A DNA stretch of 61,744 bases, filler included. It is 11 parts of 11 records of this genome, joined end to end, with 100 filler letters (N's around TTAATTAATTAA, not from the genome) between each part and the next. Parts side by side here need not be neighbours in the genome. Positions count along the whole stretch, not along the records: positions 54,523 to 58,256 come from SRR7504441_7480; 10 more parts are not named here. One strand, 5' to 3'. The notes beneath the pieces are model-generated. The model saw nothing but the letters and a program-made list of their open reading frames with translations. It was not told the DNA's origin and did no database searches. Positions within the stretch are counted from its first letter, which is position 1. Every line of letters begins with the position of its first letter. The translations under genes and the position numbers were made by a program. Shown in pieces: positions 29,626 through 58,256 of this stretch.

Positions 29626-29977
29626 NNNNNNNNNNNNNNNNNNNNNNNNNNNNNNNNNNNNNNNNNNNNTTAATTAATTAANNNNNNNNNNNNNNNNNNN
29701 NNNNNNNNNNNNNNNNNNNNNNNNNATCCGGGCCCGGCCCATCCGGATGGCCTCGAGCGGCCCGGCCCCAGACGGCGGCATCCCCGGGTGACCGGTGAAC
29801 TCGGCGCTGGCAGTGAGAAACGCCTCACGCGCCGCACTCTCGGTGGGCGCGCTGCGCTTTGAAACCCTCTGAGAATGAGATTTGCTCCGCATCACCAGGG
29901 CTGAGCGTTGGATATTCTTTCTATCAAAGCCAGGAGGAACGGGAGCGAGGCCTCTGAGGGGGAAAGCTCTAGAAGTC

Positions 29978-32900
29978 ATGCCTCCTGGAGCCAGGCGACG
30001 GCCCGGGGTCGGCGGGCTCTGGGTGGTTGTGCTCGCGTGCGCGGGGTGCTGGGGGCTGGGCACCGCGGACCAAGGTGCCGGTCGGAGGGCCGACGGGGCG
30101 GCTGAGCCGGGGGCGGCGGCAGGAGATGGTAATGGCGAGTCTCTGGGGGAGGCGCTCACGGACCGGGCCCCGGTGGATCTGGTGCCGGCCGGTCGGATCC
30201 GGTCGCGGCTTCTAGACGGGCTGCCGACCGGCCGGGGACGGGGGGCGGAGGACGAGTCGCTGGACCAGCTAGTGTCGGGGCTGATCGGGGCGATGGAGAA
30301 GGCGGACCGCAAGGGGCCTCAGCCGGCCAAAGTGCTCGGGCCGGAGGGGGCCGGGCAATACGACGTGCCGAGCAGGTACGACGAAAGCAAGGGGAACACC
30401 GCCTGGCTGCCGCCGTTCCCGTGCCGATGCGACAAGCCGCGCAACCACGGCCGGCTCAGCTGCCACCTGGAGTCGCTGCTGTTTAAAGATAAGCGCCGCT
30501 GGTGCCGGGTGGTCCAATCTACAGACTGCCCGCACCCGTTCCGTTACTGCGACCGACGAGCGTGGCACGAGACTGAAAAGTATGATGCAGACGAGGAGGA
30601 CCGGCTGTCCGCTGCCGACCATCAGGCGCGCCTAGCGGCCCGGCCGGACCGGAAGCCGCACGAGTTGGCGGCCAAGGCGCGCGAGGAGTTTCAGCTGCAG
30701 GCGGTGGCCTCAGCCTCCGAGCTGCGTGTTGAGCTCGAGAGAGTCTCTAGAATGGTCAGAAAGCACCGCGCGTACCTGGCGCGGCTGAGGAAAGAGGCGG
30801 CGGCGCATCATCTGATCGTCGCGGCGGAGGCGATGCTGGAGGCGGGCGAGCGGCGGGTGATCCGGCTTAGACGGCAGCAGCAGGCGATGAGAGGCCGAGT
30901 GGTGGTTGGGCTGACTCAGTATGCGCACAATCGGACCCTGTTCCGAGGCGACGCGCTGACTGCGGAGGAGATCAACCGGAGGGCGCTGGCAAAGGCGGCC
31001 GAGGAGTGGTGGAAGCTGGCAAAGGCCAAGAACATTAGCGAGGAGCGGATCAGCAAGAGCCAGAAGCGGCGAGTCGCCTCGATGGAGGCTGCAGTCAAGG
31101 CAGCCGAGAGCAACCACACAAACTCGGAGAAGGCGCACGACGAGCTGCTCGGCCGGGTGGAGCGGCTCCAGACCCGGTTGATTGGCCACCTGCGCAAAGA
31201 GCATCGGGATAAGACAAGATTGGCTGAGCAGGCTGTTGCGAACGCGTCACGCACACTCGCTGAGCGGGACTCGAGTCGGAAGGCGGCCGAGGCGAGGCTG
31301 GTGGAGTTCCAGCGGGCTGATGTGTACGTGACCCAGCAGCAGCGGAAGGCCGGGCGGGTCCTGAGGGTCCAGGCGCGCAGGCACGCACGGGAGCTGGTCG
31401 CAGGGTACGACAACGACGTGGCGGCGCAGGCAGTGACCGACGCGGCGATCGAAGTGCAGGGTGCGGCCAAGCTGCTGGTGGAGCGGCAGCAGCAGCTCAA
31501 GGCCGCACTGCTAGACGAGCAGAAGCGGTGGGAGAGCAGGGTCGGGACGGCTGAGGGGGTCAAACAACAGAAGGCCAAGAAAGCGGAGCTGGCCAAACTC
31601 AAAGTTGCGCAGGTGGAGCAGGCGATGGAGCAGGAGCGCAAGCAGAAGAGCAAGCAGGCCGACTTGGCCGAGCGCCGGCGCAAGGAGCAGATCAGGCTCG
31701 ATGCCGAGTTTGAAGAGCGTATCCGGAGCAAGCGGAGGAAACGAGTGGCGCTGGAGGCCCAGCACAAAGCCGACCACAAGTTGAAGCAGGCTGAGCTGGC
31801 CCGGGAGAAGGCCAAGAAGGAGGCTGAAGAGGGCCAGTTCAAGGACAGACAGGAGCGCAGGCTGAAGAAAGCCAAGGCTGAACGGCTGGAGAGGAGGGAT
31901 AAGCGGGCCGATGAGTTCGACACGAAGCAGAAGCAGACACTGCGATCGTCGGAGCTGGGCGGCAAAAGGGCCGAGGCCAAGTCCAAGCGCGAGAACGAGA
32001 GTCATGAGAAAGAGGTGCGCAAGAAAGCAGTCACAGAGCGGGCTGCCAAGGAGAAGCAAGCAAAGGCTGCCGAGGAGGAAGCAGAAATAAGTCTCAAGAA
32101 GGCTGAAGCCAACGCTGAGAAGAAAGAGAAGGCCCAGGCCAAGGAATTCGCCGAGAGGATGGCCAAAGAGAAGGAGGAAGCAGAGCAGCAGTTGATGGAT
32201 GTCCATGGACCCAAGCTGAGGCTGCACAAGGAGATGGACTGGGCAGACGCTCAGCACCCTGTCCTCACCGAAAAGAAGGACGGGGCCTGCCACGCGATGT
32301 TTAAGGCGGGAGTTGGATACTGCAATCGTACCAACCCAGGAGAGCCTGAAGATGGCTCTCAACTTAAATGTGGCTGTAAGCGTGGGCTGCAGGCAGTTTA
32401 TCAGTCAGTGACCAAATTGACTGAGTGCAGTGCGAGTGGCTGTGGAGCCTGGTACGGCAAGCGAAATCTGGAGCAGCAGGCCAAGATTATTGACACGTTT
32501 GTGGCTCAAGCTGGCCAGATGGAAGGCTGGGGCCATAAGTGCATGGTTACCTCCCCATCAGCTGAGCCATACACCAGTGTCAAAATGACGGGCCCTGACA
32601 AGTGGCTGCACGATCCCAAGCGGCATCCCAACTTTGACTGGGTATTTGACCCAATCGCGGTGAGGAAGCAGCAGGGCAGCGCGGCGCTGCCAGGCTGTGT
32701 ATCAATGTTCTATGTTGGTGTGGCAGCCTGTAGCGTGGGCAGCATCTTCACTGCCAAGTTCGCCGACCCAACTAGCAATGTGACTAGAACTGCTAAGGTC
32801 GGGGATGGATGTAAAGGGAAGCTCCTATATGCTGGCTGGTATGGCCAGCTGCTGTCGATGAGGAGTCAGGAAGAGGAATTACAGAAAAGTTGCATCTCAG

Positions 32901-35900
32901 CACATGTCAAGTGGAGCGTCGAGGTAGCAGCGATGCTCAAAGGAGCGCCTATCCGGGCTGTCATGAGCGCAGTCCAGGCAGCATCCATAGAGCTGCTTCA
33001 GAATAGGCTGGAGCTGCCGCCGTTGAAGGCCCCGGACGGATTTAGGCTAGTGCCTGCAACTGTGGAGCAGAAAGACATGCGGTCCGACTCTGGCTGCTTT
33101 GCTAAGCTGGCGATCGCACACGCCCACTGCCAGACTGCTCCTGAGAAAGCGCCAGGGTACTTTTGTGGTTGCAAAGGCGGCAAGGGGGTGGTAGTAGTTA
33201 CAACCAGTGCCCTTGCTAGAGACAGCCGCCAGTGCATTGCGTGGTACCGAAAGGTGATTCAAGCTGTGCGCCTCGCTGAGCAAAGCAAGATCGCAGGGCA
33301 GAGTGAGTACATGACTGGTTGGGCCCAAGCATGTGTCGTGGGCAACCCACTCGAGACAGCGTATCGTCAGCAGCTGCCAGCGCCTGACCAGTGGCTACAC
33401 CAGACGCGCAAGCAGCCACAGATGGGATGGATCAATGAGCCACTTCGACTGCCATACACCCACAACCTGGGTGGAAAGTTGGCTTGCAGATCCGAGTTTG
33501 TTCTGGGAATTGCTGCATGCAAAGCGAAGCAGATTCCGAGTGACAATAGCACGCAGGGGACTGGCAACTTGACCAAGCTGTCTGTTGGCTGCAAGGGTAA
33601 CCTTATGATATCTGAACTATATGGACAGATCACCTACATGCAAAATCAACAGTTACAGACCCAGCGGCTCTGTGTGGGCAAGCATGTCGAATGGAGTGTC
33701 AAGGCTATGAGTATCATGACTACAGGTCGACTTTCTAAGGAAATGGGCGTTCTTGTTCAAAATAATGCTGTTCCACTGAGTGTGAACAGCTCTGACTGCA
33801 TGAAGGGAACGCATAGCCAATGGGAACGAAAGTCAAAGGAGAAAGAGACCAAACACGAACTCAGGATGAAGCACCGGCAGAAACAGAGTGAAGCCAAGAT
33901 TAAAGATACTGAAAAAGCAGCTGAAAAGAAAATCAAGCGCGATAAGCAGAGGGTCGCAGATGAGCTTCGGAAAAAGCAGAGCGCTCGCAAAGAACAGACT
34001 GCAAAAGCGAAGGCACAGACTAAGGAGGGCATAATAAAGTTGGACCAAAAGCATGAATTAGAGCATAAAGCCCGGCAAACGGCAGACGAGGTTAAGCTAA
34101 AAGAGGCGGACAGGAAGATGAAAGTTGTAGTAGAGCTGCAACAAAAGAAACAAATGAAGACCGAGCAGGCATTAGAAAAAGCTGAAAAATCTCGAGAAAT
34201 GTCATCCAAGCGCGATGCAGATGCCCAAAGGCGAGCTTCTGAAGCAGAGAACGAAGACAAGGCCACAAAGAAGAGGGTTATTGTCGAGCAAGCCAACGAA
34301 AAGAAGACAAAGGCTAAAGCCGATGAGCTGCACCACAAGGCCATCGACAAGCACAAAGAGGAAAGCAAAAAATCCAAGGACAGGCGGCTTGGTGCAGAGC
34401 TTGCAGACAAGAAAGAGATCTCTACCAAGGCCCAGATGAAGCTGGAGAGGGCACGTGAGAAGGAGTCCAAGATCCACAGCGCTATGGACAGGGATCGTGA
34501 AGACCATCAAACAAAGGTACTAGTGCTCCAAGATGATATCAAATTATCTTCAGCAAAGGCCAAAGAAGCTCTCTCAGAGTGGAATCAGCTGCTGCTGAGG
34601 AGAGAAACCTTGTCCAAACAAATTGCTCAGGAGAAGGAAGAGCACGGCAGGATATCGCGCGACAGCTTGGCGAGTTCCAAGGAGCTTGAATCCAAAATTG
34701 TCGCTGCAAAGAAGAAAGTGGACAAGTACGCACTACAAGAGCGAACGCTGCGAGACTCAGAGAAGCAGGAAAAGGCACTTCTTGCTGTGGCTGAGCGCGA
34801 AGCACAAGAGCATGCAAAGAAACGGGATGAGCATAACGAAAAGGAAGCCAAAGCCAAGGAGGCTGCTAAAAAGCTAGCGCTGTCAAACAAGGAAAAGATG
34901 GCAAAGCAGGAAGCTGAGCATGTGACTGCACAAGAGCGGGTTGCAGAGGCTGCCCGAGAGCAGCGCAGCAAAGCGGAGGTGCAAGCAGCAGACAAAGTGC
35001 AAGAGGCCAAGGAGCAATCTCGAAAGGCAAGGGTGAAGGTCGAGTCGGCCGAGTCAGAGGGAAAGGAACTTAAGGCAAAGGCGGAGGCAGATGCCAAGAA
35101 ACTTGAATTGGCTTCGAAAGCGCGTGAAACAGAACATGAAGCAGGCCAAAAGCGTTCCAGAGAAGCAGCTAAGTTGAAGGCAGACTTGGAAAGGGCGGCA
35201 GAGAGGGAGAGGGCGACCAAAGCTCAGGAGGCTGAGGCTAAGCGGCTGGCAGAAATAGAGCAGGCTAAAGAGAAGCTCAGAGAGGCGCAAGAGAAGGCAG
35301 AAAAGCAGCGGGTGAGGGAGCTGCAGAAAAAGAAGAATGCGGAGGCACTTAAGAAAGCGCAGGAGCGAGAGCGAAAGCGTGAATTGGCTCTGAAACGCAT
35401 TGCAGAGAAAGAGAAGAAGGTAAAAGAGAAGGAAGAAAAGCTGAGAGAGAAGCAGGCCAAACGAGAGGCTTCACAAAAGGAGATGAAGAATAAAGAACGT
35501 GCAGCTAAGGAAAGTGAACGCAAAACTAAAGAGAAGTTGGCTAAGGAAGAAGCTCTACAGGAGGCTGCCAACAAAAAGGCAAAGCTAGCCAAGCTGCAAG
35601 AACGTGAGGCAAAGGAGAAAGAAGCACGCAGAAAGCGTCAGGAAAAGCGACGTAAGGAAGAAGAGCGTGCAGCTAAGGAGAAGGAAGCGAAACGAGAAAG
35701 GTCGCTCAAAGAAGTCGATGCAAAGGAGAAGGTCAAGAAGGAAAAGCAGCAAAAGTTGGAGCTGAAGAGGAAAGCTCTCGAGCGAAAGAAGAAAGAGCAA
35801 GCACGTAAGGAAACAATCATGAAGGAAAAAGATAAGAAAAAGATAGAGAGGCTCGAACGAGAGCGCAAGGCCACCAAAGAAAGGCAGGAGAAGGGAGAAC

Positions 35901-37348
35901 AGAGAGCCAAGGAGATTGCGAAGAAGATTAAGGAGAAGAAAGAAAAGGTTAGGAAGCTGCGCGAACGCAAATTGAAGCGAGCTGAGGAAAAGCGAAGTAA
36001 GGTCAAGGCTGCCGAGATCAAGAAGAAAGAGGAAGCTGCTGCTAAGGAAAAAGCAGCCAAATTGAAGGCGGCCGAGGTCAAGAAGAAAGCCAAGGAAGCT
36101 GCTGCTAAAAAGTTGTCGGCTGAACAGGCAATGAAAGCTGAGCAGGCTGCCAAAAAGGAGAAGAAAACTAAGCAACGAGTCGAAGAACTTGCAGCAAAGG
36201 GCAGAGAGGCCAAGGCTAAAGCAAACCAAGGCAGGATTCGAAAAGCAGAGAATGCTGACAAGGAAAAGATTCGAAAAGAGAAAGCTGCCAAGGAAAAGAC
36301 GCGCAAAAAGGAACAGAACGCAAAGAAGGAAGCTGTCGAAAAGGAAGGAAGAAAAAAGCAGGCTGAACGAGATGCTAAGGAGCGTGCTCGCAAGCGAGAG
36401 CAGGCTGAAAAGAAGAGACAACAAGAGCTTCAAAGGAAGCAGCAGGAACAAGAAAAGAAAGAAAAAGCGAAGGCAGCTGAGAAGGCAAAGAAGGCTCGTG
36501 TCCAGGAGCAGGAGCAGAAAGCAGCTCAAGCGGCTGCCGAAATATCGAGGCGCAAATATGAGAAAGCACTTAAAGAAAAGCAAGCAAAGGATGAGAGACG
36601 CTTGAAGCAGCTGGAGCTCAAGCGTAAGGCTGAAAAGGAGAAGAGCGATAAAGCTGAGCAGGCCAAAGATCAGGAAAAGGAGCGCAAGGCAAAAGAGAAG
36701 ATGCGCAAGATTAAGCGCAAGGAACTTGAAGAAAAACGCAAGAAGGAGACTCTGGACAAAACTAGAGCAAAATTGCGCCTGCAAGAGCGTGAAGATAAGC
36801 GGATCAAGATCCAGAAGGAGAAGAACGCAAAGAAGCTAGAGGCGCTTGAAGTTGCACGTAAGCGGTAAGCATCGTATTGTGCCATGATGCTGGGCTAACT
36901 ATTGTGTTGCAGTTCTGAAGAGCAAAGTCAGAAGGCTGAGCAGAAGGTGAAAGAGAATGCACAAAAGATGAAAGAGAAGCAGGAGAAATTCCAGAAGCTA
37001 CTCAAGCGAAAGGAGCAACAAAAGAAGAAAGAGGCAAAGCAGAAGGCTGAAGAACGAGTGCCAAAGAAGGAGGGGGAGGGCAAGGCAGAAGGAAAGAAGA
37101 AACGGGCAATCGCGGAGGCTGCTGCAAAGAAAGAGGCATCGCTTGAAAAGAAGAGCAAGGAGGATAAGCAAAAAGAGATTGAGGGAGTCGAGAAGGAAAA
37201 GAAGGCCAAGGAGAAGGTTGCAAAGGCTAGGGAGAAGCAGAAGAAGGAAAAGCAGAAGAAGGAGAAGGATCAGAAGCGGCTGAAGATGCTCGAGAGGAAG
37301 CGCAAGTTCGCTAGGGAAAGCGCTGACAAAGCCCAGCAGAAGCTGGAG
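29978..37348 (+). CDS. Giant secreted Lys/Glu-rich coiled-coil protein with a duplicated Cys/Trp-rich domain (over 2,400 aa, 3' partial)
   Basis: A 6.9-kb first exon begins with a signal-peptide-like MPPGARRRPGVGGLWVVVLACAGCWG. Intron 36865-36912 (GTAAGC..GCTAAC..CAG) continues the frame to the contig end. Confidence 0.85.
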
Positions 37349-37651: not shown

Positions 37652-40600
37652 TTACCATGTGCTTATACCGGGTCGTTTCTTGCCTGTGCGTCGGCAGGTT
37701 GGCGCAGGATTACAGTCGAGACCCATCATGAGCCATTGCCTAGTGTCAGCAGGATCAATAGTGTCATCAAGCTCTCCATTGACCGTGTTGTTCAGCGCCT
37801 TTCCATGCTGGTACATAGTATCTAGAATGCTGTCAAACAAATTCTTCTCTGCTGCAGCACCACCATCTGCTCGCGCCTCAGCTAGCTGCTTTGAGAACCC
37901 CAGCTTGACGGCTCCTTCGAGCCCCATTGGCCCAAACTCCCCAGACGGCCAGGACACGCAAAAGTGCTCATTCCCCATCAGCATCCCGCCAGCCATTGCC
38001 TGTGCACCTAGGCCATATGCCTTCCTTGTGACTACCACAAATCGGGGCACTGTGAGCGAGGCAGCTACAACAAACAGCCTACTGAACTTCCTCACGGTAG
38101 CTTGCTGCTCAGAGTCGACCCCGACCATGAACCCGGGTGTGTCAACCAGTGAGAGCACTGCCAACTCAAAGGCATCACACAGCTCGAGGAACCGCGCCGC
38201 TTTGAGTGCAGCATCACTGTCAATGGCACCGCCCTTGTGTTGAGGATTGTTGGCAATCACCTGCAAATATAAGCACGCTCGTCAACAAGGGCGGTAGAAA
38301 TTATTAGGCAGGTAGATACTTACCCCCATCGGGCGACCGGCGATTCGGATCTGCCGCGCAGCTATCAGTGTGATACGGCACCAGTGGCAGATATTACACA
38401 CCAGGGCTGTGACGATGCCAACCCCGTAGCCTTCCCGAATATAGAGGACAGAGTCAGTGTCAGCGATGAGCTCGATGGCGGTCTTGATCGAATACACACG
38501 CAGCCGATTCTCTGGTACACACCCACGCAGCAGCTTCTGATCGGCACAGTTGCCTCGATGATCAGCTCTTGAGAGCGAGCCTTGGAAATAAGACAGGTAC
38601 TTCTTGGCTGCAACAACGCCGTCCGCCTCGGTCTCTACCACAATGTCCACTACCCCGTTCGAGACCTGCGCAACGCTGTGACCGCCTCTAGTTCTATACT
38701 GCTCCCACCTGGGTTGATAAAGGACCAATTTGCGTTGGACGCACCACTCCGAGGCCTCCGCCTGCAAAGAACAGTAAAGGGCCTGCGATGCTCAAATTGC
38801 CTTCAATCATCGATGGGCCACCCATCCCTATGTTTGCACCCTTAGTGGCAATAATGAGATCACAAGTTCCAAGCATTGCTGCATTTCCAGCAAAGCAAAA
38901 CCCGCTCGCCAATCCTACTAGAGGCACCAGTCCGCTCAATCGTGCCAGGGTGGCAAATGTGGGCACCTGTTGCCCTGGTTCAGCACGCGGGTTAGCAGCG
39001 AGAGCGCACCGCCAGCCCAGCGCCCATCGGCCCTGGCGCCTCGGTGTCTCCTGGGCGACCCCCTCCGCCTTCGCACCACCACACGACCGGCAGCTGCGCC
39101 CGCTCGACGATTTCGAGGATTCTGTCGGTCTTGTGGTGACTGTGGCCTCCTTGAGTGCCAGCTAGCACCGTGTAGTCGTAACTCAGTACTGCCACTCTGG
39201 TCCGCTCTCGAGCATACTCTCCAAACAGGGAACCGTTCACACAGCCGACCCCAGTCACAATGCCATCAGCTGGCGTATTCATAATCAAATCGTCCAAATC
39301 TCTTCGCTTCCGCTGCCCTGCCACCCGAAGCCTCCCATACTCCACAAAGCTCCCGGGATCCACCAAATCAGCAATGTTCTCGCGCGCTGTGCGATAGCCA
39401 ACAGCTCGCCTCCTGGCAACCCTCCGCACAAACGCCGGATCGCGCTGGATCCTAGCGTCGTCCAGGGGAATAGCTTGCCTTTCTAGTACCTCTTGCAGAT
39501 CGGGTCGGACGGCTGTGAGCGCTGCTTGGTGGTCAGCAGACTGCGTGCTTCCCACTTGCTCCGAATGCTGTACCAGTGCGACGGCGGAGTCTGGGTCAAT
39601 CAGCTGGCCTGTGGTGACCCGAATATCAACGACTATGCCGGCCGCCTCCGATGAGATCACGTGCTCCATTTTCATGGACAAGACGACCACTAGCGGCTGC
39701 CCAGCTTGCACATGGTCTCCGACTTTAACCTCCACGGCTGCCACCTGGCCTTGTATCGCCGAAGCTACCCAGAAGTGCCCCTCCGGTGCAGGTTCTAATG
39801 GCTGTGCGGTGGACGTAGCCAGGCCAGTGTCTGCGCCACGCAATCTGCTACTCGCCTCCTCGAGCAGCTCAAGCATGGCTGCGCTGGCAGGCTCCCGATT
39901 CTCGGTGCTGCCGAGCTCTTCGAGAAAGTTTGTCCTTGCATTCCCTAGTGCAAGCTCAGGACGAGATACGAGCTGTAAGAGCAGGGGTAGATTGGTCGGA
40001 GCTCCGGTCAGATGAAACTGACGCAGTGCAGACTGGGCGCGTAGCAGCGCCTCCTCAAAGCTGCCCGCTGTGCAGATCACTTTGGCAATTAAAGGATCGA
40101 AAAATTGCACTGGCTTGTACCCTAGGAACCCACAGCTGTCTACCCTCACCCCGATGCCAGATGGCTCTCTGTAGCCGGTGAGGCCTTGTGCAGAAGAACA
40201 AGGGCCACTGAGCGATACTGCACGCCACAGGTCAGATAAAGCAACTCCAGCTGAGGGTGCAACCTCGGCACTGCACTGCACACCCCGAGAGCTTGACGTC
40301 GCGCTGTGAGTTTAGACCAAGTTGGGCCAGTGAGGCTCCGGAGGCAATCCGGAACTGTGCCTGGACGAGATCGATCCCAGTGACCTGCTCAGTAACTGTA
40401 TGCTCGACCTGAACCGATGGGTTAGTATGAGCAATTAGTACTAGTCGACGATTACTAACCATCATATAGTAGTCAATTACTACAAGTATAATACTACGTG
40501 TATGATGCTTGACCTGAATCCTCGGGTTACACTCCATAAACCAGTACTCGTCCCCCGACACCAGAAACTCGACGGTCCCTGCGTTGCAGTAGCCAGCCGC

Positions 40601-54208: not shown

Positions 54209-54832
54209 GTGCCTGGCTTGGCTTGGGCCGCTAAGGGGTGGGCCAGCCCTCGGCACGATGTGCGCGCGAGCAGCTTAGACGTGACTCAGCTATCAGCGGC
54301 CACCCTCAGTCATGGGTACCGCGCAAGGTAGATGGCCCGAGCCTGCGATCACAACAATCACACATCTCGAGCGCTACATCGTCCATTGTGGTGTTAGTTA
54401 GTTAGTTAGTTACCGAGCATTTNNNNNNNNNNNNNNNNNNNNNNNNNNNNNNNNNNNNNNNNNNNNTTAATTAATTAANNNNNNNNNNNNNNNNNNNNNN
54501 NNNNNNNNNNNNNNNNNNNNNNGCCAGCGGCTCGGCCTGCGCGTCGGCCCCGGCCCGGAGCAAGGCCCCGGTCGGCCGCACGCGCCAGAGCGCGAGGACT
54601 GCGAACCGGTGGCCAGAACCGGCCCGCCAGACCCGCTCCAGCGCCGGCCCGGCCCGGTCGCCCACCACCGCCGCCCCCCTCGTCCTCGCCTGACAGGCCT
54701 TGACACAGGGATGCCCGAGAGCGCCCCGAAATCGAAAATCCACGGAAATAAAATTGGACGAGTCTTCAAATTGGCAAAGTCTCGCTCGCCGCGGAACCTC
54801 TGACCCTATCGCCGCCACGCAGCCCTCCGAGT

Positions 54833-57713
54833 ATGGCTGCTGACGGTGGGGCCGACGGCTGGCAAACCGTGCCGACCAAATCAAAGAAGCAACAGGACGA
54901 CAACAGGAACCGACCCCGCCGCCGCTCCAAGCCGAACGCCGGTGACGACGGACCGCGGAAGGGCCGAGGCAAGGGCGCCGACAAGCCGAACGGGAGGACG
55001 GGCCCGCCCGCCAGCACGGTGCCTTGCCGGAACTGGGCGCAAGACGGCAAGTGCCCCCACGGCGCCAAGTGCCGTTTCGATCACGGTCCGAACGTCTTCC
55101 AGCCCACTGGCAACAACTGCGCCGCGGCCGGCCCCCAACGCCCTCGGCCGGAGGTGCCCAACGGCGTCGAGGCCGCGGCCGGCGAGGGCGCCAACCAGAG
55201 GCCGCCCGAGTCGGAGGGCAAAGGCGGCAAGAGCAAGCCGGCCGGGCCCAACGGCGCCAGCCTACCCGAACCGCGCAACGGCGGGGAGCCCGTCCGGGAG
55301 GCCCCGAACGGCAAGCCAGGGCCGCTCCGGAGAGACAACTCGGTGGGCCAGCCGGCTGGTGCCGGGAGTGAGGGGTTTGCCAGGTGGAGACCTGGACTTC
55401 CGAGGCGAGTGAGACGCTGCATGAATGCTCAGCCAGGTGACGCTCGGAGGATTGTCTGTTGAGCCGACTGTAACGCAGGTCTTCTCCTGATTGCACTGAC
55501 CTGCCCACGCCAACCACAACGCTCAGCGTCCTCGCTGAGGTGAGATACTTAAGCTCGATGATCAGAGCGGTCATGCCAGTCTAATGCCCTGAGATCGTGC
55601 ATCAGCTGAGCTTGATTGCTGCAGGAGGGACTCCTCAAGAACCAGGCGGACTCCGATCATCCTAGCGCATACGAGGTGCGGCCTGCCACTCCCATTTAGG
55701 CCATTGCGGCCACAGGTCGCATCGCCCACAATCGGGCTGAACGGCGCGCTTCCCCCGTGGCTTGGCCCGGCTTCGCCCGTTGTAACTGTCGCACCCCCTA
55801 ACCAGCTCTGTTATCCCTTTAGCGGCCCACACCGGCTGGTCTTTGCCGGCCCTCGAATGCCTTCCGACCTGCTGGGGTCAGGCGCCTGCTAAGAAAGTGC
55901 GGGAGCCAGCAGCCCCACCTGCGGTTGTGGAGCCACCTGCACCGGCACCTGCGCCTGTGGTGCGACCTGCCCAGCTTGGGCGCGCACCTGACGGCGTTGC
56001 GTGCTGCAGGCGGCACCTGACATCGCAGTCCCACTACCCCGGCCAGCTGGCGAGCAGCCGCCGCGACCAGCGCCGCAGCCAGCCAGCCATCAGACCCGCC
56101 CGCCAGCCAAAACAGAGCCTTCAGGGATCCCAGCCCCGGGGATTCCCAAGCCAGCAGTGTGGCCGGCACGTCAGGCCGCCCAGGTGACGCGCTGCCGGCG
56201 CTGGCCGATGCGCTGACAGCGGACAGGCGCCGGCAGATCCTCTTGAAGTGACAGCCAGGTCGGGCAAAAGACTTAAACTGCAGAATAAGTGGGTGGCCTG
56301 GGAACACCGCAGCACCGGCGGCAGCGCGCTCGACTCGGCTTACCACCACGCGGTCGGGTACGTGTCTGAATTCGACACGATTGCCGGGCTGTGGCAGCTG
56401 CTCAATCACCTGCCGCCACCATCAAAGTTCTTTGGGACCCCAAAGCGCGGCCGGCGCAAGGTTGGCGGACGGATGGTTGAAGGGTGGTCGATCTTCCGCG
56501 AAGGAATCCGGCCTGAATGGGAGTGTAAGAGCGGGGCCAATATCACTGGCGCCGAGTTCCAAGTCGGGTGCGACGAGCTGAGCAGCTGTGACCAGCTGTG
56601 GGAAGTAATGCTGCTGGCCGTGGTTGGTGGGACTGTTCCAACAGCCAGCGAGATCACTGGCGTGAGGGTGGTGGACAAATGTAAAAAGGGCGCCAAGCAG
56701 GTATACCGGCTGGAGCTCTGGTTCACTGCCAAAGCTGACATGAATGCGATCAAAGCTGAGTTGAAGGAGCTGGGTATGGGCGGCAACATCAAGCACAAGA
56801 GGCACTCGAACCAGGCTCCTGTTCAGCAGATGGCGGCCCAAGCAGCCCAGCAACCGAGCGAACCCAACAGCCAGGCCGGAGAAATGAACCTGAATTCAAC
56901 ATCAAGCTTCGGGCACATGCAGGGCGGCCAGGAGAAGGAGGCCAGGGCCATCTGCGCCAAGCTGACTCCGAGCAACTTCGAGCGGCTGGTCCCGCAGCTG
57001 CGCGGATTGTTAGCTGGAGGAGGACCGAGCACGCTCGACGCTGTGGTGGTATGTATTTACCAAGCGATGCGGCAGACCCCAGTGTTTCATGAGATGTACT
57101 CCAAGCTGACGGCAGCGATTCCGCAGCTGATCCCTGGCGTGATTGAAGGCATCATTTGCAACGTGGCAAAATTCCAGCTGGAGGTGGCTGATCATCGTCG
57201 GTGCTTTGACTGAGTTGAGAATGCAGGAGAACCGGCGCGAAGCCAAGACTGCGGCGAGTGGCGCAGCTGCACTGTACGCGGAGGGGCTGCTCAATGCTGC
57301 GGACATCACAGCTCTGGTCGATCAGGTGCTCATTTGATTGATTGTGCTGAGCCTGGTGTCAGTTTGGGCCTGGTGAGACACTCGATGGCCCAGAGCTCGA
57401 GGTCATGTGTCAGTTGCTCAGCCAGCTGCAGGTGCTTGGCTGCTGGTAATGGATCTGAGCCTTGGTTACAGACGCGCGAGGAAGCCAAGAAAGAGGGCAA
57501 GAGAGGAAGGGCGTCCAAATTCAGCTTGTCTGATCAACTGCAGGCGGGTCACTGCATTAGGGGAGCTCTGATTCGGTTGGATGACAGGGCGCTTACGACA
57601 AGCTCCGCAAGTGCCTGGCCGCCGGGCATCTGTCAAACCGGCTCCGGTTCATGGTGGAAGATTTACTCAAGGCGGCCGAGAAAACTGCCAAGTCCCGGGG
57701 GGGCCGCCGCTAA
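54833..57713 (+). CDS. CCCH zinc finger - Pro-rich linker - eIF4E - MIF4G fusion protein
   Basis: C-x8-C-x5-C-x3-H at 55025-55084. eIF4E motifs LQNKWVAW, FDTIAGLW, SIFREGIRPEWE, LWEVMLLAVVG, ITGVRVVDK and RLELW. The same exon continues into MIF4G-like ARAICAKLTPSNFERL and FHEMYSKL, and spliced exons give LEVMCQLL and LSNRLRFMVEDLL. Stop at 57711-57713. Confidence 0.85.
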
Positions 57714-58018
57714 TCATCTTCTGAACATGGATGTCATGCACGAGTAAGCAAATCTCTTATACTTTAATTATAAGTACTAGTGCTTTATGCACAAGGTATG
57801 TAGAATATTTTTATTCATTGTATACAAATACAGATTTTTTGATTTTGAAAGATCCGTGAATCGCTAATAATAATACCAACCGAGTATGGGCACTTGCAAG
57901 TATCACGCTGCATGATACATTGTTTACAAGCTTAGGTTGTGCGTGTGTAGTGCGCGTGTACAAACTGTGTATGCAGCGCTCGATTCACACTTAATAATGT
58001 CATCTGATGACAAGAGAG

Positions 58019-58256
58019 TCAGGTCATCGGAGCGGGGGTGGGCGGGATTGGAACTACGGGCTGGTGCAAGAACTGCTCGAGCAGCAGATCCAGCTGGTCG
58101 CCGCCCGCATTCACAACATCCATCGCGCAGACCTGCCGTGCAGGGAGGCCCTTGTTGTCCTCCTGCCCCCAGCTCGCTCCGGCTGGCTGTCTATACCGCA
58201 CCAAGTAGCTACTATCCGGGTGCCGGCCGTAATCGCGCCCAGCATTCAGCTCGACC
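58019..58256 (-). CDS. 3' end of an unidentified gene
   Basis: An open frame from the contig edge, with a probable 39-nt intron, ends ..LDLLLEQFLHQPVVPIPPTPAPMT*. It converges on the eIF4E gene across an AT-rich spacer. Confidence 0.35.

Follow-up and report, generated by a model that had tools for sequence, protein, structure and literature searches.

In the textbook view, cap-dependent translation is limited and regulated where eIF4E associates with eIF4G, a step targeted by 4E-BPs, TOR signalling, many viruses and drug programmes. In canonical eIF4F, eIF4E, eIF4G and eIF4A are separate proteins. We analysed a 61,744-base stretch of DNA (the window), made up of 11 contigs separated by ten N44-TTAATTAATTAA-N44 spacers. 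One of its genes, alone on its own contig (54523–58256, 3,734 bases; SRR7504441_7480), encodes an eIF4E domain and an MIF4G domain in one chain, probably preceded by a CCCH zinc finger. As in canonical eIF4F, the eIF4E fold keeps equivalents of W102, E103, W166 and W73, the MIF4G domain is eIF4G-type by profile, and the eIF4E domain lies N-terminal to MIF4G, at the place that eIF4G usually gives to its eIF4E-binding peptide. Unlike canonical eIF4F, the parts are covalently joined and a CCCH finger is added; the fusion has no conserved YxxxxL-phi motif and no PABP, eIF3-linker, MA3 or W2 part that we could find, W56 is Tyr, and ~11–13 residues are inserted between W73 and W102.

Several described systems come close to this arrangement. 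A giant-virus vIF4G that consists of MIF4G only still forms a working IF4F complex (bioRxiv 10.1101/2025.09.30.678621), and the likeness to our gene is that the scaffold is a single MIF4G domain, there working with eIF4E and eIF4A (bioRxiv 10.1101/2025.09.30.678621). The viral parts are separate and joined via a YX3II motif (bioRxiv 10.1101/2025.09.30.678621), whereas the window gene, with its introns and poly(A) RNA, is a cellular one that encodes both domains in one chain. The viral vIF4E and vIF4G structures also fit the model of a close relative (P0001, below) worse than cellular ones do (Z 15.5 and 13.1). An engineered human fusion of eIF4E with an eIF4G fragment purifies capped RNA (PMC9635732) and likewise unites eIF4E and part of eIF4G in one chain, there a cap-binding one, but it is artificial, uses an eIF4E-binding eIF4G fragment and a Gly-Ser linker, and cites no natural counterpart in the part of the paper available to us (PMC9635732). 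Protist eIF4Es in studies of the dinoflagellate eIF4E family share the change of W56 to Tyr and have 11 residues inserted between W73 and W102 (bioRxiv 10.1101/2024.02.20.581179; PMC3388326), and dinoflagellate eIF4G candidates have the MIF4G/HEAT-1 part only (bioRxiv 10.1101/2024.02.20.581179). In dinoflagellates, however, eIF4E and eIF4G are separate, and the sole eIF4E fusion named in the available part of that study is 2OG-Fe(II) oxygenase:eIF4E (bioRxiv 10.1101/2024.02.20.581179).

We found no natural eIF4E–MIF4G or eIF4E–eIF4G fusion in the literature, where the supplementary tables of two surveys (bioRxiv 10.1101/2024.02.20.581179; PMC3388326) might list such architectures. A first-pass annotation of the window, made from the sequence alone, had named no characterised protein with a CCCH–eIF4E–MIF4G architecture; this agrees with our literature searches, and uncharacterised sequences with it exist in public collections. 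The gene presents familiar domains and a familiar complex as a natural single chain extended by N-terminal modules, and its family is conserved among protists.

The eIF4E–MIF4G reading frame and its relatives

The open frame at 56188–57213 (341 residues) contains a Pfam IF4E match (PF01652; E 4.7e-20, 72.4 bits, cut-off 28.7) at residues 30–194 (~56275–56769), followed by a partial Pfam MIF4G match at residues 250–315 (~56935–57132). The eIF4E domain and the first part of MIF4G thus lie in one uninterrupted exon, as the first-pass annotation had it. With this unspliced main exon as query, the MIF4G match covers profile positions 1–66 of 203 only and scores under the Pfam cut-off (E 5.4e-5, 23.5 bits, cut-off 30.8). 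The spliced 3′ product matches the family MIF4G profile over positions 1–174 of 175 and aligns end to end with the MIF4G domains of relatives, plus one extra 14-residue basic loop.

The same two domains recur in one open reading frame (ORF) in at least 12 full-length lineages. A near-length search with the main exon gave 5 matches among 1606 candidates, three of them fused: P0001 (510 residues, 55% identity), P0002 (525 residues) and P0003 (322 residues). A longer-length search gave one match among 4585, P0006 (559 residues), with CCCH, IF4E and MIF4G. A five-sequence profile run against 1.84 billion representatives returned 2199 matches at E ≤ 1e-3, 469 at ≤ 1e-10 and 34 at ≤ 1e-30, and Pfam assigned IF4E plus MIF4G to the top matches P0007–P0012, P0014, P0017, P0018 and P0054, with CCCH in P0007 and P0008. 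By hidden Markov model, 32 of 168 collected sequences carry both domains, near-identical cluster members included. A metagenome scan added L001, a 2014-nucleotide (nt) contig with one 654-codon frame holding N-D-E-W-T-E-V, CCCH, LPLPKP, eIF4E and MIF4G. The finger ORF alone (54833–55390) gave 0 matches among 1271 candidates in the longer-length search, and a protein atlas search with P0006 gave no usable match. The finger is in the chain in five lineages (the window, P0006, P0007, P0008 and L001). The architecture search proposed in the first-pass annotation thus returned the same domain order from independent assemblies, which argues that the fusion is not due to chance.

We placed the fusion with a quick IQ-TREE analysis of 127 eIF4E-domain rows, leaving out 14 near-identical members or isoforms and rows covering less than 75% of the eIF4E profile. 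Thirteen of the 14 fusion rows fell in a single clade (Shimodaira–Hasegawa-like approximate likelihood ratio test, SH-aLRT, 98), with the window sister to P0001; the clade also contains one 245-residue eIF4E-only row, possibly a fragment. The fourteenth, P0017, lay outside the clade in the quick tree. When the 14 fusion rows were kept together, the tree had a log-likelihood 10.8 higher (approximately unbiased test, p 0.59), leaving a separate origin of P0017 unsupported; on these eIF4E alignments, a single origin for all 14 rows is compatible with the trees and not rejected. P0017 itself (453 residues, on a 16,446-nt contig) is AT-rich and Asn/Lys-rich, with more canonical domains (IF4E 116 bits, MIF4G 110 bits). 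Pattern scans of viral contigs gave 7 pattern matches with P0017 and 24 with the core-clade set A1, among which no relative was confirmed.

Gene structure, RNA evidence and the zinc finger

The gene model has ~8 exons and encodes ~706 residues with an optional 75-nt exon, or 25 residues fewer without it. The order is an N-terminal D-x-W-x-x-V motif, one CCCH finger, a Pro-rich linker (L-P-x-P-K/R-P), eIF4E, an eIF4G-type MIF4G (HEAT-1) and the end of the chain, with the 5′ part predicted as marked here:

54833–55408 (+): exon 1, predicted 3′ end; ATG 54833, D-G-W-Q-T-V motif 54854–54871, CCCH finger 55025–55084, basic and Pro/Gly-rich tail
55409–56009 (+): predicted intron region, either one 601-nt intron or 55409–55881 and 55957–56009 around the optional exon; both keep the frame
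55882–55956 (+): putative optional 75-nt Pro/Ala-rich exon
56010–56156 (+): Pro-rich linker exon with V-P-L-P-R-P at 56028–56045, suggested by RNA contig X2 record 5
56157–56226 (+): predicted 70-nt GT-AG intron; no other acceptor connects the eIF4E frame with the phase-0 end at 56156
56227–57183 (+): main exon with eIF4E (~56275–56769), a Gln/Ala/Ser-rich linker and the first half of MIF4G (from ~56935); Pfam, colinear RNA contigs, alignment to solved eIF4Es
57184–57226 (+): 43-nt GT-AG intron, joint in RNA contig X1 record 2 (side 39; one of four runs)
57227–57325 (+): MIF4G exon, X1 record 2; aligns with the family
57326–57362 (+): 37-nt GT-AG intron, joint in X1 record 2 (side 70; one of four runs)
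57363–57431 (+): MIF4G exon, X1 record 2 and X2 record 7
57432–57471 (+): 40-nt GT-AG intron, joints in X1 and X2 (two of four runs, two studies)
57472–57543 (+): MIF4G exon with the 14-residue basic loop inserted relative to homologues; X1, X2, X4 and alignment
57544–57587 (+): 44-nt GC-AG intron, joints in X1, X2 and X4 (side 72; three of four runs, three studies)
57588–57713 (+): last exon with the MIF4G end (R-L-R-F-M-V-E-D-L-L, 57639–57668), a short basic tail and TAA 57711–57713; RNA to 57726 and 57735, family-wide end motif

The spliced 3′ part (56227–57183, 57227–57325, 57363–57431, 57472–57543, 57588–57713) reads as 440 codons with a single terminal stop. The protein ends ~15 residues past MIF4G, and the chains of relatives do likewise. 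The predicted 70-nt intron has a CTGAC branch-like site 10 nt ahead of its AG. Beyond the fusion stop, an AT-rich 3′ untranslated region (57750–57990) separates the gene from the end of a convergent neighbour on the other strand, a 93-codon open frame at 58019–58256 (−) that runs off the contig and whose end lies ~300 bases past that stop.

Eleven metatranscriptome runs from seven studies contain 5–12% of the contig's sampled words, and four of these (X1–X4, from four studies) were aligned to it at 90% likeness, as Logan assembled contigs rather than reads. The fusion gene is present in RNA from poly(A)/oligo-dT libraries. Marine metatranscriptome contigs matching at ≥99% yield four GT/GC-AG joints, and a single 364-nt RNA contig crosses all four introns, so that the short introns thought to complete MIF4G are seen directly (43, 37, 40 and 44 nt). 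The 57544–57587 joint as computed lies 3 places further right, within the stated slack of 4. These joints overruled two introns guessed by eye, a 52-nt intron at 57163–57214 and a 156-nt intron at 57432–57587. Colinear RNA contigs also cover 56302–56523, 56429–56652, 56779–57148 and 56799–57073 within the main exon. X2 record 5 (154 nt) matches 56011–56156, with 4 unmatched letters at each end; its ends adjoin an AG (56008–56009) and a GT (56157–56158), and it therefore suggests an exon at 56010–56156. The 56157–56226 joint is absent from the RNA contigs of the four aligned runs. RNA thus follows the chain from the main exon to the end of MIF4G, while of the continuous coverage hoped for across all domains the finger-exon junction and 56653–56778 are missing. 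Two further X2 matches were judged to be other GC-rich sequence and left unused: record 3 (20 + 21 nt with 10 foreign letters between and loose ends) and record 4 (33 nt long, with 3 mismatches and both ends loose).

Genes of ordinary eukaryotic kinds lie on other contigs of the window (aldehyde dehydrogenase, peptidase S28, biotin carboxylase, mitochondrial carrier, CRAL/TRIO), from which we take the source to be a eukaryotic bin or assembly. The fusion belongs to the nuclear genome of an uncultured marine protist, where it is a genuine, expressed gene. In the biotin-carboxylase gene, on another contig, a candidate 46-nt intron (40237–40282 (−); GTTGCA...CTGAC...GTGCAG) lies at a frame switch and resembles in style the tiny introns found by RNA in the fusion gene, which raises the possibility that the organism has introns this short in general. 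Elsewhere in the window, an open frame of 2,329 codons (29879–36868 (+)) has no Pfam match and lies where the sequence is strongly skewed towards purines (AT skew 0.56, GC skew 0.28 at 34–36 kb).

The finger lies in a separate upstream ORF, 54752–55462 (ATG 54833), with a Pfam zf-CCCH match (PF00642; E 2.2e-9, 37.5 bits, cut-off 20.5). Its spacing is C-x8-C-x5-C-x3-H (55025–55084, residues 65–84), and that of the relatives is C-x7-C-x5-C-x3-H. The N-terminus of the finger ORF is collinear with P0008 (BLASTP E 1e-4), P0006 (E 6e-4) and P0011 (E 0.012), and the order motif–finger–LPxPKP–eIF4E matches P0006, P0008 and L001. G+C at third codon positions (GC3) is 0.83 in the finger ORF and drops after ~55372, and no frame in 55433–55880 has a GC3 signal. 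The only good-consensus phase-0 donor, at 55409 (cga|GTGAGA), joins 56010 in frame, directly or via 55882–55956. From ~55590 to 56470, within the eIF4E domain, no forward frame contains an in-frame ATG, and the start must therefore come from upstream. Absent start codons and collinearity with homologues together indicate that the finger exon is probably spliced to eIF4E–MIF4G. Of the upstream finger link drawn in the first-pass annotation, the finger itself and its order in homologues therefore stand, and the junction is one that no RNA shows. An alternative 5′ model favoured by GC3 (exon 55882–56183 and a 36-nt intron, 56184–56219) was dropped, as the RNA contig ends exactly at 56011 and 56156 and only the other frame carries the family VPLPRP motif.

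Other modules accompany the finger. A short conserved motif, D/N-D/G/E-W-Q/S/T-x-V, in many cases with P and Lys/Arg after it, occurs near the N-terminus in the window (54854–54871), P0006, P0008, P0009, P0011 and L001, and at ~residue 205 in P0014; it is found in finger-bearing and finger-less members and has no Pfam family match. A linker motif, [LIVAM]P[LVAIK]P[KR]P, is present in 9 of 14 family sequences by regular expression, and an LPKP core in three more by eye; this conserved L/V-P-L/V-P-K/R-P motif, which lies between the finger and eIF4E, may serve to dock a protein with a Pro-binding domain. In place of CCCH, the N-termini of P0014 and P0166 have C-x3-C-x13-H-x3-C and C-x2-C-x12-C-x3-C clusters, with no Pfam match at E 0.01 or better, and it looks as if zinc-binding modules have been attached recurrently.

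In L001, nucleotides 1–420 contain a stop at 31–33 and no in-frame ATG ahead of the motif and finger, and the first Met falls inside C-R-F-M-H; in-frame GTG (88–90) and ATT (91–93) codons lie just upstream of the N-terminal motif. Five proteins of the P0002 cluster begin at the Met inside C-R-F-M-H, their finger having probably been removed by gene calling. The missing ATG in L001 and these internal starts therefore suggest either a non-AUG start or systematic gene-calling truncation, and they flag a gene-calling problem, in which at least one lineage loses its zinc finger as the first AUG falls within it.

Properties of the eIF4E and MIF4G domains

Aligned by HMMER to yeast eIF4E (1rf8), the window protein has a Tyr (in SAYHH) at the position of yeast W58 and human W56, keeps W102–E103 as PEWE, and places the Trp of TIAGLW at W73, with the ~11–13-residue insertion between W73 and W102. 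All that the first-pass annotation stated on the sequence proves correct, the TIAGLW reading of the dorsal motif included, and the cap-binding positions look usable. The dorsal Trp is conserved in every family member aligned. The W166 equivalent is the Trp of L-E-L-W, invariant across the family alignment, and the W43 and W46 equivalents are kept (K-W-V-A-W-E-H), so that only W56 is altered. Class II eIF4Es (4EHP type) are defined by W43 to Y/F/L plus W56 to Y/F (PMC3388326); with W43 unchanged, the window protein does not show this pattern. Tyr for W56 is common in protist eIF4Es active in translation, and occurs also in class II and III eIF4Es (PMC3388326). Spread over several kinds of protist eIF4E, the change says little about function either way. 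The model of P0001, the closest full-length relative, has an eIF4E fold (Z 20.6, root mean square deviation 2.8, 162 residues aligned to 2wmc_A; Foldseek TM 0.83 to 4uea_E, normalised to target).

The MIF4G domain is eIF4G-type by sequence profile. Searched against the PDB, a 16-sequence family profile matched eIF4G1 (5.7e-35), eIF4GII (2.5e-32), DAP5 (1.4e-31) and yeast eIF4G (3.5e-14), followed by CWC22 (1.6e-7), trypanosome EIF4G5 (5e-7), UPF2 (2.9e-4) and PAIP1 (2.9e-3). A five-sequence core-clade profile matched eIF4GII (6.9e-13), eIF4G1 (4.4e-12), DAP5 (2.4e-7) and CWC22 (~1e-4), with no NOT1, CBP80, UPF2 or PAIP1 chain in the PDB at E 1 or better. The Pfam MIF4G cut-off is passed by 7 of the 12 full-length relatives (P0002, P0008, P0009, P0011, P0012, P0014 and P0017).

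The AlphaFold model of P0001 has a predicted local distance difference test score (pLDDT) of 81.5 and a predicted template modelling score (pTM) of 0.44. Residues 317–509 form ten helices, mostly with pLDDT >90, a model that confirms the five-repeat HEAT fold in this relative; the fold check proposed in the first-pass annotation is thus borne out in that relative, alongside the family-profile match of the spliced product. Compared with MIF4G domains, residues 312–500 gave Z 19.0 with CWC22, 17.7 with eIF4G HEAT-1 (8huj_B), 17.6 with UPF2, 15.3 with NOT1 (4b89_A) and 15.1 with DAP5. The MIF4G subtype is distinguishable by sequence only. A regular expression for the YxxxxL-phi eIF4E-binding motif had no match in the window model or in 12 of 13 relatives; its two matches are both in P0009, and the motif is not conserved (1 of 14 sequences).

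One relative carries the helicase as well. P0018 and P0167 are two Trinity isoforms from Telonema subtile (EukProt), and P0167 (879 residues) has IF4E (103–265), MIF4G (302–480), DEAD (528–690) and Helicase_C (730–840) in one ORF. Among solved structures, its helicase scores highest with human eIF4A-I (361 bits), then yeast eIF4A (337), eIF4A-III (321) and DDX6 (229), and its motifs are intact (GKT, DEAD, SAT, HRIGRGGR). MIF4G and helicase are joined by a seamless 30-residue linker, and the helicase begins at ~residue 29 of eIF4A-I, both of which argue against a chimera of two transcripts. Judged from its domains, P0167 would be a natural three-in-one eIF4F; we found no description of this transcript in the literature. 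The Telonema proteins share with the window gene the eIF4E clade (SH-aLRT 98), the insertion after W73 and the MIF4G end motif. They differ in their in-chain eIF4A-like helicase and in lacking a CCCH finger, whereas the window gene stops after MIF4G, and there RNA is colinear past the stop.

Candidate functions of the fused chain

Taking domains, family and RNA together, we lean, with a little over even confidence, towards the product being a compact, constitutively assembled eIF4F-like factor. In such a factor, the Tyr at the W56 position and the Trp at the W102 position of the eIF4E domain would hold the m7G cap between them, and an eIF4A-type helicase, along with RNA, would dock on MIF4G. 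In place of the YxxxxL-phi peptide that tethers eIF4G to eIF4E there would be the covalent link, and the zinc finger and linker motifs would contribute RNA or partner contacts. The factor is predicted to bind the cap, dock eIF4A, promote initiation and be insensitive to 4E-BPs, and it may select mRNAs. The eIF4G-type profile and the Telonema eIF4A fusion together support eIF4A as the partner. A complex prediction of P0001 MIF4G (312–510) with the Telonema helicase (P0167 495–879) scored 0.74, and one unrelated control scored 0.75, which makes the score neutral as to binding.

Several observations weigh against this eIF4F-like factor. Pfam MIF4G scores under its cut-off in 5 of the 12 full-length members (P0001, P0006, P0007, P0010 and P0167) and in the window exon alone, and structure leaves the domain no nearer eIF4G (Z 17.7) than CWC22 (19.0) or UPF2 (17.6). 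At a pTM of 0.44, the relative placement of the eIF4E and MIF4G domains in the P0001 model is unreliable. Pfam found no MA3, W2 or PABP-binding part in the window frames or the relatives, so that the chain offers no evident route to the 43S complex. The kept dorsal Trp means that, as far as the alignment goes, the dorsal surface may still be usable by 4E-BP-type ligands. The Telonema fusion is known from two Trinity isoforms of a single transcriptome. At least seven lineages lack the finger, which is therefore not essential to the family. In the four aligned runs, no RNA contig lies over 54600–55900, so that the exon 1 junction is a predicted one, or over 56653–56778, which an open frame and homologues bridge.

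The absence of parts beyond MIF4G also feeds a different account, the main rival, that the protein acts as a repressor bound to the cap or as a store of mRNPs, holding the cap and a DEAD-box ATPase on selected mRNAs without recruiting ribosomes, with the CCCH finger picking targets, comparable to the 4EHP–GIGYF–TTP and 4E-T/NOT1–DDX6 repressor models. A chain that ends right past MIF4G, with no eIF3-, PABP-, MA3- or W2-type part, would suit such a role, as would an RNA-binding-type finger within the chain, an MIF4G fold common to NOT1 (Z 15.3) and a Tyr for W56 as in class II and III eIF4Es (PMC3388326). That Tyr, however, also occurs in translation-active protist eIF4Es (PMC3388326), W43 is kept against the class II pattern, the profiles match eIF4G with no NOT1 at E 1 or better, and an MIF4G-only viral IF4G is reported to support translation (bioRxiv 10.1101/2025.09.30.678621). 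The in-chain Telonema helicase is eIF4A-like rather than DDX6-like, and this weakens the DDX6 repressor that the first-pass annotation had offered as its alternative; overall we consider a repressor or storage role unlikely. The architecture it had described is supported and conserved in other organisms, and the single-chain eIF4F it had put first gains indirect support from the eIF4G-type MIF4G and the same helicase.

The remaining doubts concern the gene rather than its product. The CCCH ORF (54833–55462) could be a separate upstream gene, with eIF4E–MIF4G starting at a non-AUG codon or in an off-contig exon: it has its own stop (55463–55465), no RNA joint ties it to eIF4E–MIF4G, at least seven family lineages do without a finger, and the finger region of L001, with no in-frame ATG, indicates that odd starts occur in the family. 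We nevertheless think this improbable, given that no forward frame offers an in-frame ATG upstream of eIF4E (~55590 to 56470), that strand, order, the phase-0 donor at 55409 and an in-frame acceptor fit a single gene, that the GC3 coding signal stops near the proposed donor, well ahead of the ORF stop, and that motif or finger shares an ORF with eIF4E–MIF4G in the five lineages named above. An assembly or gene-prediction artefact, or a giant-virus contig, has in its favour that the contig is short and comes from a binned or concatenated assembly. Either is very improbable, however: a single unbroken exon encodes eIF4E together with the first MIF4G repeats, the fusion recurs in assemblies made independently from several sources, four of the seven proposed spliceosomal-type introns are seen in RNA (three studies, poly(A)/oligo-dT libraries), and the scans of viral contigs with A1 and P0017 confirmed no relative.

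A wider proposal, which we hold tentatively and regard as rather unlikely, is that a whole protist clade including Telonema and the window organism runs cap-dependent initiation through a single-chain eIF4F, which in Telonema would include eIF4A too. The eIF4E–eIF4G switch controlled by 4E-BPs and TOR in other eukaryotes would be gone, and control would have shifted to N-terminal modules (the D-x-W-x-x-V motif, CCCH or other zinc fingers, the LPxPKP motif) that choose mRNAs or partners. The fusion also provides a Rosetta-stone type of argument as to what a divergent MIF4G domain partners with, and biotechnology may find in it compact modules that bind the cap or recruit helicases. An eIF4E–MIF4G chain that is natural, conserved and expressed, and to which one relative adds eIF4A, is an experiment of nature; it would show how a cell lives with this switch hard-wired, which parts of eIF4G are truly needed, and where regulation moves.

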